From positions 353,839 to 417,838 of the forward strand of contig CAYPAP010000001.1 in assembly GCA_964408775.1 (NCBI GenBank): a stretch of 64,000 nt of DNA, written 5' to 3'. A model generated the notes under the pieces. The model did no database searches, had not been told where the DNA came from, and saw only the letters and a program-made list of their open reading frames with translations. Position numbers and translations under genes: made by a program. The DNA is from an uncultured Gammaproteobacteria bacterium. Its GTDB lineage: Bacteria > Patescibacteriota > Patescibacteriia > Patescibacteriales > UBA12465. Positions 59,890 through 64,000 of the stretch are shown one piece after another. How positions within the stretch are numbered: position 1 is the first letter of the stretch; every line of letters starts with the position of its first letter.

Positions 59890-59978
59890 AAATAATAAGG
59901 TGTTTTTTCGCGGAGCTCATCTCGTCGAATGGCGGGGTTGCGAAAGCGATTTAAATTAATTTAAAAAATGAATAGTGA

Positions 59979-60143
59979 TTTCCGGTTATTGATGTTATTG
60001 AGGTTTTGACAGGAATTAAAAGACCTGAAAAATATTGGAGTGATATTGAGAAGAGATTAAAAAATGAGAGCAATATTGAGTTGTCCGAAAAAATCGGACA
60101 ACTAAAATTAATATTTAGAGGCGGAAAGCATGAGGATGTTTAG
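59979..60143 (+). pseudogene. Fragment of a Bro-N/antirepressor-like gene
   Basis: A start-less open frame. FPVIDVIEVLTGIKRPEKYWSDIEKRLKNESNIELSEKIGQLKLIFRGGKHEDV* resembles the middle of Bro-N domain proteins (..VDVVEVLT...YW..LK.RL..EG.EL...I.QLKL...DGK..). Confidence 0.5.
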
Positions 60144-60388
60144 CGGTATTTTAACGAGAAGTGTGGGTGGGGGCTAAAATTGATTTTAGTGGATATTTTT
60201 AGTATAAGTAGATTTATAAAGAAGGAATAATTTCTTTTTGTTCGTATAATATGCAGATTTTTACTTTTTTTAGCAATAAGTTCGCATAATAACCAGTTAT
60301 ACGCAATTCAAAAAATATTTTTCTAACGGAGAATAAGGAATGATAGGCTTTCAAAGAGGAATAAATTTGATTTTTTCTTTATTTAATG

Positions 60389-60468
60389 AGGGGGACAATA
60401 TGGTATTTTCTCCACTTCGTTGCGAAAACAATTTATTTATAAATTGAAAAACATAACAAAACTTATAT
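60389..60468 (+). repeat. Degenerate repeat copy 'f' upstream of the SDR gene
   Basis: Holds the family hairpin TTTTC-TCCACTTCGTTGC-GAAAA (60406-60428). A decayed end reads AAAAC-TTATAT (about 60458-60468), against the family end AAACGTTAWAT. Confidence 0.5.
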
Positions 60469-60492
60469 AATACAAATAACTTTTAATTTATT

Positions 60493-61293
60493 ATGGAGAA
60501 TAATATGAAACCACTTGAAGGAAAAATTGCACTTGTGACTGGTGGAACCCGCAATGTTGGGAAAGGAATCGCTATAGGCTTAGGCGAAGCAGGTGCTACT
60601 GTCTATGTAACCGGAAGAAGTATTACCGACAAAGATGTTAAAGGAATTACAACTGCTGGTGGAAAAGGTATTGCCTTAGTATGCAATCATGAAAATGACG
60701 ATGAAGTAAAAAAGATATTTGAACTTATCAAAGAAAAAGAAGGAAAACTGGATATCTTGGTTAACAATGCTTGGGGTGGTTATAATCGTTTACGCAACAG
60801 AACAAAATATAAAGGTTTTAAGTGGAAAGAATTTTTTTGGAAACAACCCTTGGAATTATGGGATGAAATGAACAATGTTGGTGTTCGTTCAAATTTTGTC
60901 GCAAACGTTTTTGCTTCCGAAATGATGATTAAACAAAAACAAGGATTGATTGTAAATATTTCTTTTTACGCCAGTCGCAAATATTATGGAAATGTAATTT
61001 ATGGCATTGCAAAGGCGGCTGTTAATAAAATGTCTATGGATATGGCAGTCGAACTTAAACCACACAATATTGCTTGCGTTTCATTATATCCAGGATATAT
61101 TGACGACAATAAAAAGAAACCTAACCCAAAAAAAGAATCTTCGCAATTCGTTGGAAGAGCAATAGTCAATTTGGCTTCTGATAAAAATATAATGTCAAAA
61201 ACAGGTAGTATCTTAGCCGCTGCCGAATTGGCGAAAGAGTATGACTTTAAAGATATTGATGGCACTCAACCTATACCATATGACACAATGTAA
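60493..61293 (+). CDS. Short-chain dehydrogenase/reductase (SDR) family oxidoreductase
   Basis: ALVTGGTRNVGKGIA (TGxxxGxG), NNAW, and the catalytic YGIAKAA (YxxxK). Confidence 0.85.
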   Translation: MENNMKPLEGKIALVTGGTRNVGKGIAIGLGEAGATVYVTGRSITDKDVKGITTAGGKGIALVCNHENDDEVKKIFELIKEKEGKLDILVNNAWGGYNRLRNRTKYKGFKWKEFFWKQPLELWDEMNNVGVRSNFVANVFASEMMIKQKQGLIVNISFYASRKYYGNVIYGIAKAAVNKMSMDMAVELKPHNIACVSLYPGYIDDNKKKPNPKKESSQFVGRAIVNLASDKNIMSKTGSILAAAELAKEYDFKDIDGTQPIPYDTM

Positions 61294-61430
61294 GATTTTA
61301 ATAATGAGTTTTAAAAAATGAAATTCACCCCTAACCCCTCTTTCATTTTTCAAAACGGAAAAAATCAAATTTATAATAATTTAGGAGAGCCTGTCATAAT
61401 GAGTAAAAACGAAAAATATTTTTTGAACTC

Positions 61431-61576
61431 ACTCCGCTACGCTCCGTGCCACGCTGCGCTCTCCTCCTTTCAGTCGTCGGGGCGTATAACAGCGGATATG
61501 AGGTTCGCCCATCGGCTCGGGGCTCACCCAAATTGCTCACTTCGTTCGCAACTTCTCATATCCGCAAACGTTAAAT
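61431..61576 (+). repeat. Structured GC-rich repeat copy 'b' (attC-like)
   Basis: Blocks in order: ACTCCGC, CCACGCTGCG, GTATAAC (61484-61490), GCGGATATGAG (61492-61502), GCTCGG, CCCAAATT, hairpin TTGC-TCACTTCGTTC-GCAA (61533-61551), CTCATATCCGC (61555-61565), AAAC, GTTAAAT (61570-61576). Confidence 0.75.
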
Positions 61577-61593
61577 GAAATAATAAAAAATTT

Positions 61594-61890
61594 ATGGCTA
61601 TTGAAGTTATTTTTTATCTCGTAATATTTATATGTATCTGTGGTTTGGCATATGCAATGTATGAGGTTGTAAAAAATAAGGATTATTATACGCCAAAACA
61701 AATCTGGGACAGAATAACAGAAGAAAAAGAAAGTAAAAGTCTAAGTAGTTTGCCTTTTAGACTGCTAGGACTGAAGGTTCCGAATATTACATCTAGAAAA
61801 TTTGATGCAATTTTTTTTCTGACAGTATTATTATTATTTATAATCATCATAATTATTTCAGCAGTAATGATAATAATTGAAAAGCTATAG
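61594..61890 (+). CDS. Small two-helix membrane protein, function unknown
   Basis: 98-aa ORF with hydrophobic helices at both ends. It starts 17 nt after repeat 'b'. Confidence 0.5.
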   Translation: MAIEVIFYLVIFICICGLAYAMYEVVKNKDYYTPKQIWDRITEEKESKSLSSLPFRLLGLKVPNITSRKFDAIFFLTVLLLFIIIIIISAVMIIIEKL

Positions 61891-61962
61891 ATCTTTTATT
61901 ATATTATAATAAGAGTGTACATTTGGTTGTATATTTTACACAAAAACTTCCATCTATATTTA

Positions 61963-62008
61963 CCTCCGCTACGCTATGGCAAACATCAGATATGCTGAAA
62001 CGTTAAAT
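61963..62008 (+). repeat. Internally deleted repeat copy 'c'
   Basis: The family 5' block CTCCGCTACGCT (identical to copy b) is joined to the 3' end ..AGATATGCTGAAACGTTAAAT (GTTAAAT at 62002-62008). The central ~100 nt is missing. Confidence 0.65.
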
Positions 62009-62068
62009 GAAATTAAAAACCAGTCCTAAGAACGATAGATTTTTATAAACTTAATAATTAAATAAGTT

Positions 62069-62386
62069 ATGCCAAACGAATTTCAAAAAAATGTGAAAAA
62101 GTTTATGGATGATAGTGCCATGAACAATCCTGTTGAAAATAGGATGCTAGATTTAGTAGATGAAATTGGAGAAGTAGCAAAAGAAATCAATAAAATGTCC
62201 CAATATGGCACAAAAGAACCAAAGTTTAGAGAAGAAATAAGAACAGAAATTGGAGACGCTTTTTATTCTTTAATAACTGTTGCCAATTACTATGATGTTG
62301 ATATGCTTGATTCACTTGATAAAGTTATAAAAAAATACAAGAAGAGAATTGAAAAAGGTGGACATGCTGGCTCTGAGAATGATTAA
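62069..62386 (+). CDS. MazG-like nucleoside triphosphate pyrophosphohydrolase (small all-alpha type)
   Basis: LVDEIGEVAKEI ... EIGDAFYSLITVANYY (ExxE...ExxD metal motifs); 105 aa. Confidence 0.75.
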   Translation: MPNEFQKNVKKFMDDSAMNNPVENRMLDLVDEIGEVAKEINKMSQYGTKEPKFREEIRTEIGDAFYSLITVANYYDVDMLDSLDKVIKKYKKRIEKGGHAGSEND

Positions 62387-62404
62387 CGGGCTGGTTTTTA
62401 ACTT

Positions 62405-62559
62405 GCTCCGTTTTACTCCGCACCACGCTGCGTTCTCACTCCACTACGTTCAGTTCGGGCCACTTAACAAGGGATAAAAGGAAAATCACTCAGCTCGGCA
62501 TTTTCCCAAATTTTCTTTCACTTCGTTCCAGAAAACTTCTCATATCCCTAACGTTATAT
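62405..62559 (+). repeat. Structured GC-rich repeat copy 'd' (attC-like)
   Basis: Same ordered blocks as copy b: ACTCCGC, CCACGCTGCG, ACTTAAC (62462-62468), GGGATAAAAG, hairpin GGAAAAT..ATTTTCC, CCCAAATT, hairpin TTTTCT-TTCACTTCGTTCC-AGAAAA (62511-62535), CTCATATCCC, TAAC, GTTATAT (62553-62559). Confidence 0.75.
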
Positions 62560-62622
62560 TTAATTTGAGTCGTGGCAAAACAATAGTAAAACTTTTAAAT
62601 TTTAATTTTTTACCAATTTAAT

Positions 62623-63168
62623 ATGACAAATGTAACTTTTATAACCGGAAATCAAAGCAAGGCAGATTACTTATCCAAATATTTAGGATATCCAGTAGAT
62701 CATGTAAAGCTTGATTTGGACGAGATTCAATCTACCGATCTAAATGAGATCGTTGAGCATAAAGTCAAGCAAGCATACGATTTAATACAAAGACCTGTAA
62801 TTGTAGAAGATGTTTCTTTGGAGTTTGAAGCTCTTGGTGGCTTGCCAGGTCCTTTTATAAAATTCTTTGTAGAAAAAGTTCCATTTGAAACAATCTGCTC
62901 AATGATTGGCGGCGGATTAACAAGAAAGGCTACAGCAAGGTGTGTTTTTGGTTATTTTGATGGCGAAGATTTAGAATTGTTTGAAGGTAGTCTGGGTGGT
63001 GAAATCGCTGAAAAGCCTTCAGGAAATAATGGTTATGGATGGGATAAAATCTTTATTCCAGAGGGTTATACTATTACAAGAGCATCACTTGACGAAGAGG
63101 GGAACCAAAAAACATATTTGAAAGTTAAGCCATTTTCTAAATTGAAAAAATATTTGGAATCGAAATGA
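62623..63168 (+). CDS. Non-canonical purine NTP pyrophosphatase (HAM1/ITPase/RdgB family)
   Basis: VTFITGNQSK and VEDVSLEFEALGGLPGPFIKFF, with GYGWDKIF. It ends at TGA. Confidence 0.85.
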   Translation: MTNVTFITGNQSKADYLSKYLGYPVDHVKLDLDEIQSTDLNEIVEHKVKQAYDLIQRPVIVEDVSLEFEALGGLPGPFIKFFVEKVPFETICSMIGGGLTRKATARCVFGYFDGEDLELFEGSLGGEIAEKPSGNNGYGWDKIFIPEGYTITRASLDEEGNQKTYLKVKPFSKLKKYLESK

Positions 63169-63224
63169 TAAAAAAGGTAAAAGTTTTGTAATTAATAAAT
63201 AAATTCCACGACTCAAACTCTGAA

Positions 63225-63368
63225 ATTTTCCTTCGGCACGTTGCACTAAATTTTAGCCCTACGGTGAATGTAGCAGGGTTTATGAGGAAATTTGCTCGGT
63301 TCGCCGCTCACCCAAATTTTTCCTACACTTCGTTCCAGAAAAATTTCGTATATCTCTGACATTATCGG
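63225..63368 (+). repeat. Degenerate repeat copy 'e'
   Basis: GCTCGG, GCTCACCCAAATT and the hairpin ATTTTTC-CTACACTTCGTTCCA-GAAAAAT (63316-63344) are retained. Both terminal boxes are decayed (GTGAATGT and GACATTATC). A further AACGTTCAAT lies at about 63475-63484. Confidence 0.6.
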
Positions 63369-63568
63369 AAATAGCATATATTTTTCTCGGAGATTGGAAG
63401 GATTTTGTTCCGCAAGAAAACCAAAAAAGCGAAACTATGAATCAAGAAGTGTTGGTGCTAACAAAAAAATAAAAAACGTTCAATTACACTAAGGAGTAAA
63501 AAATGTTTACTACATCCGATATGAAAGAAATTCCTTATAAAATTATTAATTATTAAGTTTTTCACAAA

Positions 63569-64000
63569 TATGAAAGAAAAAATAGAACAATTTTCTGTCG
63601 CTAATCAACCCGATAATAACATTGTTGAATTAATTCAAAAACAACAAAAACAATGTTCAGAGCATGTTACTGAGTTAACAACAGAACAAATAGAAGATTT
63701 GCTAAAACAAGGGAATTATTTTTTTGTGAAGCAAGATGATAAAATTTTAGCATCAGGGTATAAAATGCCTTTAATAAATGATGCGAATGAAGACGAACAA
63801 ATATATAGATTGGGTGGTTTGTCAATTTTAGATTTTAAAAACTCTTCTGTTGAATCTAAAAAGAATATGTTACTTCTTTTTCAAAAAATAAAAGAGCATT
63901 TTGAAAAAACAAAGGCACAATTAATAATGAAAACAGATAATCCTGTCTTGGCCAGAGTTTTAAAGAGTATGGGGGCAGAAGAGCTGTCTTATGACGAGTG
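63569..64000 (+). CDS. 5' part of an ORF running off the window; function unknown (possibly acetyltransferase-like)
   Basis: ATG at 63569, and the frame stays open to base 64000 (MKEKIEQFSVANQPDNNIVELIQ...). It is absent from the ORF track because no stop is present. The GNAT guess rests only on size and context. Confidence 0.45.

Follow-up and report, generated by a model that had tools for sequence, protein, structure and literature searches.

Chromosomal integrons, such as the Vibrio superintegron with its near-identical VCR, combine a divergently encoded integrase and an attI site with a series of co-oriented, mostly single-gene cassettes, each ended by an imperfect palindrome (attC) with AAC...GTT boxes. 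The attCs are similar within a family, and arrays without an integrase, known as clusters of attC sites lacking integron-integrases (CALINs), are common. An attC is about 57 to 141 nt long. In DPANN and other archaea, Ghaly et al. (2022, Sci Adv, PMC9668308) described arrays that were mostly integrase-less, with only six integron integrases (IntIs) among 75 genomes. We analyzed the end of a 64,000-nt stretch (the window) of contig CAYPAP010000001.1 from assembly GCA_964408775.1, which an earlier note, made from the sequence alone, had read as an integron-like cassette array. Positions 60240 to 64000 of the window are very probably a sedentary, partly decayed cassette array of an integron-like system. 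It is composed of an attI-like site, four attC-ended cassettes (a short-chain dehydrogenase/reductase, SDR; a 98-aa membrane protein; MazG; and ITPase) and a fifth unit that has lost its attC. MazG, SDR and small proteins are typical cargo of chromosomal integrons, as are the restriction-modification genes found in relatives of this array. The earlier reading as a cassette array is borne out by an array-adjacent recombinase and an attI in these relatives, by the complementarity of each site with its own cassette end, and by reshuffling of cassettes at G|TT.

The array consists of the following features, all on the + strand (R'' and R' are the outer boxes of an attC, and L'' and L' its inner arms):
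60240-60299, +, attI-like site with an upstream direct repeat TTCGTATAA at 60240-60248 and the core TTCGCATAATAACCA-G|TTA, crossover G at 60296
60297-61570, +, cassette 1 (1274 nt) with leader A (60297-60445), SDR open reading frame (ORF; 60493-61293), trailer B (61296-61420) and attC b
61421-61576, +, attC b, intact (nhmmer E 5e-42, 120-copy model)
61571-62002, +, cassette 2 (432 nt) with the 98-aa predicted membrane-protein ORF (61594-61890) and attC c
61960-62008, +, attC c, decayed (nhmmer E 1.4e-5, 120-copy model; match 61960-62026, covering model positions 128-194 only)
62003-62553, +, cassette 3 (551 nt) with the MazG ORF (62069-62386; Pfam MazG) and attC d
62395-62559, +, attC d, intact, with R'' ACTTAAC at 62462-62468 and R' GTTATAT at 62553-62559 (nhmmer E 8e-43); it folds
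62554-63361, +, cassette 4 (808 nt) with the HAM1/ITPase ORF (62623-63168; Pfam Ham1p_like) and attC e
63215-63367, +, attC e, decayed (nhmmer E 6.5e-32, 120-copy model)
63362-64000, +, fifth cassette-like unit with the typical start TTATCGGAAAT and a 177-aa ORF that runs from 63570 to 64103, past the window end

Two hidden Markov models (HMMs) were used with nhmmer, one built from copies b, d and e and the other from 120 family copies. The 3-copy HMM matched b (61421-61585), d (62395-62570) and e (63211-63379) at E values of 1e-40 to 1e-46 and had no comparable match in the other 59 kb of the window. The attC b comprises a 5' extension (61421-61483), R'' GTATAAC (61484-61490), L'' (61492-61502), L' (61556-61566) and R' GTTAAAT (61570-61576), and it folds as an L helix that closes two hairpins. 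Only the 3' half of attC c is recognisable (hairpin 2, L' and R' GTTAAAT at 62002-62008), the 5' half having decayed. The attC e has TAGC (63271-63274) for TAAC in R'' and ATTA (63361-63364) for GTTA in R', and its single-sequence fold was no better than those of shuffles. An 86-aa ORF over copy b was considered as protein-coding and rejected, as the homologous stretch in locus L006 has an in-frame stop after 21 codons.

The earlier note had placed a member of this repeat family after each gene. This is correct for the strong members b, d and e and the decayed member c, but not for its copy f, which scored E 0.25 with the 120-copy HMM (60407-60429) and is a hairpin-2-like motif inside the conserved cassette leader. 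Similarly, among the copies that it called decayed, c has indeed lost its 5' half and e is changed in both R boxes, but f is not a member. A proposed short relative at 59903-59957 matched neither HMM. The boxes that it had marked in the intact copies, GTATAAC at 61484-61490 and ACTTAAC at 62462-62468, were found where it put them, together with GTTAAAT at 61570 and 62002, GTTATAT at 62553 and the perfect 11-bp pair GCGGATATGAG/CTCATATCCGC in copy b. Its unit lengths of 432 and 551 bp are exact (G|TT at 61570, 62002 and 62553), whereas the unit given as 1108 bp measures 1274 bp, with its left end at G 60296.

The G|TT positions, together with the R'' complementarity rule described below, set the limits of cassette 1. 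The attI-like core in the window reads TTCGCATAATAACCA-G|TTATACGC with the G at 60296, and GTTATACGC (60296-60304) perfectly complements the R'' GCGTATAAC of attC b; cassette 1 therefore spans 60297-61570. The attI-like site of the window aligns with sites that lie 30 to 110 nt from the integrase start in eight integrase-bearing loci. The ORF of cassette 1 has Pfam adh_short on record. The 98-aa ORF of cassette 2 had no Pfam family over its cut-off, and the 177-aa ORF of the fifth unit had no Pfam match. No family attC was found downstream of the fifth unit by the HMM search, and the array terminates at convergent tRNA-synthetase genes downstream of the window. It had been pointed out that all genes of the region lie on the + strand. 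This was seen, but nearly every gene-like ORF of 90 aa or more in the entire 64 kb lies on the + strand, and co-orientation alone is therefore uninformative in the window.

We then looked at the family in other genomes. An exact search pattern of 23 bases from the repeat interior (GAACGAAGTG-N-AATTTGGG-N7-CGARC) retrieved 96 stretches of GTDB species genomes and one IMG/VR contig. The 96 loci belonged mostly to Patescibacteria (candidate phyla radiation, CPR) and DPANN archaea, some of them on contigs of 0.25 to 1.4 Mb, the others being Altiarchaeales, Methanosarcinales and some contigs of metagenome-assembled genomes (MAGs) with other labels. Labels of Gammaproteobacteria, Bacteroidetes, Clostridia and Cyanobacteriota occurred mostly on short contigs (L016, L047, L051, L078, L083, L102, L106, L018, L071 and others). 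Full-length homologues were found by nhmmer, and all copies lay on one strand in 37 of the 38 multi-copy loci, with a spacing of mostly 550 to 1200 nt. Of about 185 aligned copies, 153 had TAAC and 147 had GTTA, although neither is part of the search pattern. The 80 cassettes between consecutive sites had a median length of 1023 nt. Among the cassettes of up to 1600 nt, the longest ORF was co-oriented with the array in 52 of 60 and started about 74 nt after G|TT. No close homologues of the cargo genes of the window were found in the 96 loci, save a 30%-identical SDR in another array.

These distributions bear on the view that the repeat is a repetitive extragenic palindrome (REP)- or miniature inverted-repeat transposable element (MITE)-like sequence, a terminator, or a cis-regulatory RNA such as a MazG/ITPase leader. 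The copies are indeed GC-rich, structured intergenic elements in an AT-rich genome, each lies 17 to 63 nt upstream of the next ORF, and MazG and ITPase are functionally related (nucleotide house-cleaning). However, the window copies all lie within 3 kb, the relatives are same-strand arrays rather than scattered copies, and the other 59 kb hold none. Rfam had no match at the repeats at either gathering or permissive thresholds, and the single terminator-like site of the region is inside the ITPase ORF. A riboswitch or leader for MazG and ITPase was rejected because the genes that precede the element in relatives are of all kinds of function and because it marks recombination junctions. As shown below, the element is also tied to an integrase. 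We give almost no credence to this group of explanations.

The folded structure of the element was analyzed in 126 unique sites, which measured 71 to 136 nt from TAAC to GTTA (median, 94 nt). The TAAC and GTTA counts, these lengths and the covariation of the L helix show an imperfect palindrome with paired R''/R' and L''/L', as in an attC. The L''/L' arms occurred in 66 distinct versions, yet they were complementary within each site; the median Watson-Crick run was 10 for a site's own arms and 4 for arms paired across copies. Folded as single-stranded DNA, the bottom strand was the stabler one in 122 of the 126 sites, and the z-scores averaged -4.3. A plain MAFFT alignment of 50 diverse copies misaligned the stems and was of no use for RNAalifold, and we relied instead on the test of own against cross arms and on pair counts in a 12-sequence alignment that was not fitted to any structure. 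Compensatory changes were observed at 8 of 11 pairs of the L helix and 6 of 9 pairs of hairpin 1. The covariation score was 0.456, compared to 0.153 in shuffles (none of 500 reached 0.456) and at most 0.085 for slid partners.

Two hairpins and the L helix that closes them form a three-way junction. Its conserved motifs, CCCAAATT and AACTTC, are kept also in copies that were not selected by the search pattern. The earlier note had cautioned that the element folds better as a three-way junction than as one long hairpin; the junction is real and conserved by covariation. At columns 56/84 of the alignment, within hairpin 2, all 12 sequences have a mismatch, A.C when read on the top strand and G.T when read on the bottom one. 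The motifs CCCA(A/T)ATT and AAC(T/A)TC covary, A occurring with T and T with A. The mismatch and the joint change of the motifs hint that it is the bottom strand that folds. The R and L boxes are separated by 1 to 2 nt on one side and 3 to 4 nt on the other, leaving an asymmetric internal loop between the helices. Viewed as a duplex, the stem would present two inverted arms, C-NNN-TA(A/T), with an asymmetric loop, and may resemble the core of attI. Compared to chromosomal integrons, in which the interior of attC is a free "variable terminal structure", the interior here is a conserved three-way junction with motifs, and the R-L spacing (1-2 nt/3-4 nt) differs as well. The validated attCs of archaeal integrons are likewise different, being simple hairpins of 58 to 97 nt (PMC9668308).

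The position of crossover was examined in 52 cassettes with a family site at either end. The bases preceding AAC in the R'' of a cassette complemented those that follow the GTT of the upstream site, at the cassette's own start, in 77 to 87% of cases per position, whereas the same bases matched the physically adjacent R' in 35 to 54%, equal to random pairings. The own start beat the adjacent box in 40 cassettes and lost in 6 (sign test, p = 1.6e-7). Consistently, the TAAC/GTTA core was paired in 98% in the 12-sequence alignment, compared to 54% where the pairing is continued into the box next to it. Copies b, d and e of the window showed the same direction; the R'' of d, for example, matched its own cassette start at 7 of 9 positions and the adjacent box at 5 of 9. 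The weak trend of this kind reported earlier from the window thus had the right direction and is highly significant in the cassettes of relatives. Such own-end complementarity is what marks integron cassettes as circularisable units with crossover at G|TT, and because of this crossover point the R' boxes are hybrid, as in integrons.

Comparison of related arrays for reshuffling at G|TT, which the earlier note had proposed, gave a positive result in three contigs from three samples (L112, L113 and L114). These carry an identical integrase and an identical core flank (HhH-GPD, glycosyltransferases, EPSP synthase and LysRS). Their arrays, with each cassette denoted by a letter, read A-A-B-C-D-E-F, A-G-H-I-J-A-B-C-K and A-L-C-M-B-N-O, respectively. 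At the nucleotide level, identity begins and ends at the GTT of an attC or of attI, and one cassette was found both at attI and behind an attC within one genome. The cassettes are discrete units; natural strains carry them in different orders, in duplicate and as insertions at attI, and the junctions fall at G|TT.

A tyrosine recombinase of about 270 aa, always divergent from the array, adjoins it in 18 of the 96 loci (stretches of at most 8 kb each); in most of the 18 it lies 0.45 to 1 kb from the first attC. In the reverse direction, three integrase homologues led to five loci in three genomic contexts, and all five had divergent family arrays directly adjoining. The layout of attI, divergent integrase and co-oriented array was seen in 18 of 18 and 5 of 5 integrase-bearing loci. 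In these loci, the complement of the R'' of the first attC was found 30 to 110 nt from the integrase start. The attI of relatives has a semi-conserved TTCG(T/C)ATA(T/A)AAAC(G/C)A|GTTA at the crossover and an upstream direct repeat TTCGTATAAC, and its core has classical 9-7-9 inverted arms, e.g., TTCGTATAA-TTACGAG-TTATACGAA.

The best NCBIfam match of the integrases was NF040815 (archaeal XerA) with 208 to 237 bits; three of the four proteins scanned (223 to 237 bits) exceeded the cut-off of 220, and the fourth scored 208. TIGR02249 (integron integrase) gave 190 to 216 bits in two separate stretches, against a cut-off of 265. By sequence, the nearest solved structure was VchIntIA (2a3v, E 2.6e-43), with a match that falls into two stretches and leaves out residues 184-244 of IntI4, followed by the XerA structures 4a8e and 5hxy. 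In alignment with IntI1, the integrases lack 31 plus 11 aa of the additional domain, among them the I2 helix, but retain the catalytic R-K-H-R-H-Y and the C-terminal (I/V)(K/R)SPL(D) tail. The Pfam domains, PF00589 and PF13495, are the same as in IntI1. At least 6310 protein clusters matched one integrase at E <= 1e-30; the best 120 of them were about 270 aa long (259 to 324 aa) and 73 to 83% identical, bore the labels of various CPR groups and of some further bacterial MAGs, and were named only "XerD" or "tyrosine-type recombinase".

The search for an IntI that had been suggested earlier therefore has a divided outcome: an integrase is paired with this attC family in relatives, but it lacks the additional domain. 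The integrase of the family is not a canonical IntI. According to Messier and Roy (2001), as related in a paper citing them, the additional domain is the defining criterion of an IntI, and the IntIs of both chromosomal and archaeal integrons (PMC9668308) have it. The family would be an integron in function, but its integrase is without this defining domain. One could suppose instead that the array is a canonical integron or CALIN, served by a standard IntI encoded elsewhere in the genome, with the short recombinases as bystanders. The R boxes would fit, since they match validated attCs with their RYYYAAC-AA start and C-GTTRRRY end (Ghaly 2022, Data S9), the lengths of 71 to 136 nt are within the attC range, and our integrase search covered 74 kb (the 64-kb window plus 10 kb downstream) of the 298-kb ENA contig to which the window belongs (ERZ27252304 k141_46705). 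On the other hand, all 18 plus 5 recombinases beside arrays lack the additional domain and keep the same placement and orientation with respect to attI and the array, and no IntI-type protein was found in about 100 loci. A standard IntI behind these arrays is very unlikely.

The resemblance of the integrases to Xer proteins raises another alternative, Xer/dif modules of the type of integrative mobile elements exploiting Xer (IMEX) or pdif. Here the recombinase would be the host dimer resolvase, the "attI" would be dif, and units would integrate in tandem as double strands at short cores. Like archaeal XerA, bacterial XerC/D and the "Cand" group of candidate-phyla recombinases, treated as Xer-related by Smyshlyaev et al. 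(2021, PMC8138268), the integrases have about 270 aa, a simple tyrosine-recombinase fold without an I2 helix, database names such as XerD or tyrosine recombinase and, in three of the four proteins scanned, NF040815 scores over the cut-off. These scores, the similarity to 4a8e and 5hxy and the 9-7-9 arms of the attI core speak for a Xer module. The sites, however, are not double-stranded dif-like sites of about 28 bp but structured elements of 71 to 136 nt. The L' arm at the junctions is variable (66 distinct L'') and covaries with a partner 50 to 110 nt away, which makes sense only for a folded site, and the interior hairpins covary as well. The integrases have the PF13495 N-terminal domain of IntI1 and an IntI-like SPL(D) tail, and their genes lie beside attI and a cassette array, in contrast to enzymes that act at a lone dif. 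This context, and the 73 to 83% identity across phyla, unlike that of a vertically inherited housekeeping gene, argue against a housekeeping role. We consider the Xer/dif alternative unlikely.

For the integron-like system preferred here, the following mechanism can be proposed. The recombinase of about 270 aa, encoded divergently by attI, would excise cassettes as circles and reinsert them at attI. Its substrate would be a folded single strand of the attC, probably the bottom one, in which the paired R''/R' and L''/L' arms (C-NNN-TA) may mimic the two inverted arms of the attI core. Movement of the cassettes in the window would need an integrase acting in trans, since none was found in the 74 kb searched.

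Some cassettes of the family carry a further leader and trailer of about 270 nt together, another difference from chromosomal integrons. The earlier note had remarked that the conserved unit extends about 55 nt 5' of the R'' box. This extension belongs to a conserved cassette "chassis": it is present only in full-length copies, always after a conserved trailer B of about 120 nt (61296-61420 in the window), and cassettes with trailer B begin with a conserved leader A of about 150 nt (60297-60445). A and B, 72 to 93% conserved, surround unrelated cargo of 0.5 to 3.6 kb in at least 15 other loci (including L006, L017, L028, L033, L039, L050, L054, L056, L060, L064 and L088); the cargo of L006, for instance, is a restriction-modification methylase. 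A and B are inverted repeats (17 + 12 + 17 bp). In a fold prediction of the reconstructed circular junction B-attC-A, the R helix was extended by about 46 bp to give a rod of about 440 nt. In L028 and L060, a B/A hybrid lies between two genes of one cassette.

In the window, the sigma-70-like sequence TTGAAA-16-TATAAT (11/12) is located in 60444-60471, at the end of leader A and 20 nt before the SDR start, and TTCAAA-17-TATAAT within trailer B (61349-61377); these are the best sigma-70-like matches of the region. As far as consensus matches go, cassette 1 may carry its own promoter.

Several observations weigh against the interpretation of the window as an integron-like cassette array of this family. 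Two of the four attCs in the window (c and e) are decayed, and the fifth unit is without one. No tyrosine recombinase was found in the 74 kb comprising the window and 10 kb downstream. Contigs of the same genome from other samples carry an identical array, with no polymorphism in the lineage. The helices predicted between A and B are nearly invariant in sequence and showed no covariation. Finally, many of the loci are MAG contigs, and the unusual taxonomic labels among the relatives may reflect mis-binned CPR/DPANN contigs or mobile elements, not true hosts.

With four family attCs in 60.3-63.4 kb, as called by the family HMM, and no integrase in the 74 kb, the earlier description of the array as integrase-less and "CALIN-like" is fair, with the amendment that the window keeps an attI-like site (60240-60299). 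A search for an integrase remnant between the KilA-N gene and attI by tblastn with 12 integrases gave insignificant matches only. The KilA-N gene and an ORF fragment sit where relatives carry the integrase. The fragment-like frame at 60000-60143 is open without a start codon, reads TGIKRPEKYWSDIEKRLKNESNIELSEKIGQLKLIFRGGKHEDV up to a stop, and resembles a C-terminal gene fragment that is not integrase-like. Three contigs of the same genome from other samples (L002, L108 and L109) break inside leader A or trailer B around the SDR gene. Breaks of this kind are to be expected if many genomes in the community contain copies of A and B, and they are not evidence of polymorphism.

Beyond the window itself, we lean slightly towards the view that the array is a decayed member of an unrecognised, very abundant class of integrons common to CPR bacteria and DPANN and other archaea, in which an I2-less, IntI-like integrase shuffles cassettes via folded three-way-junction attCs. 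The CPR and DPANN hosts set the family apart from chromosomal integrons, while sharing of attC types across domains, seen here, was also reported for archaeal integrons (PMC9668308). None of ten archaeal assemblies that were checked and have the present family is listed in the supplementary tables of Ghaly et al. (2022), including the IntegronFinder output, which suggests, indirectly, that standard pipelines miss the family; the IntegronFinder 2.0 paper does not mention CPR. Our literature search, which was incomplete in coverage and leaves a prior description possible, did not find this combination of integrase and attC described.

In the model of Escudero et al. (2016, 2020), single-strand recombination is held to have arisen from a Xer-like ancestor by gain of the I2 helix, the key innovation for recombination of folded single-stranded attC. 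The present protein, which is closest to IntI by sequence but has no I2, resembles the pre-I2 state postulated there. An I2-less enzyme tied to structured attC sites and cassette shuffling is, however, not predicted by the model. If the broader view is true, single-strand attC recombination would not depend on I2, or these elements preserve or have re-invented a pre-I2 stage. The integrases of a major part of all integrons would then escape standard integron finders, which need the C-terminal signature of IntI. A natural family with attI, attC, hybrid boxes at G|TT and shuffling, but with an I2-less integrase and a more elaborate conserved attC, would offer a concrete system for testing attC recognition without I2 and the origin of integrons from Xer-like enzymes. 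It would also represent a platform for the exchange of cassettes among CPR and DPANN organisms, which, with their small genomes, presumably rely heavily on acquired accessory genes, and it suggests a route for gene exchange between the two domains. The at least 6310 clusters labelled "XerD" or "tyrosine recombinase" are relatives of the integrase, and some or many of them may be integrases of such platforms.

The IMG/VR contig (L006, IMGVR_UViG_3300001335_000566, 71 kb), filed as viral, has one full A-cargo-B-attC cassette with the methylase, of 845 aa, beside DnaB-like and SMC-like genes. Either phage- or plasmid-like elements can carry such cassettes, or the contig has been wrongly filed. 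The array with a short integrase in L115 (GCA_046766315.1, 377-kb contig) has large cargo of the defence type, with only two family attCs detected over 10 kb; it includes RE_AlwI, two DNA methylases, an OLD-family nuclease/ATPase and a type I-like methylase/specificity fusion.

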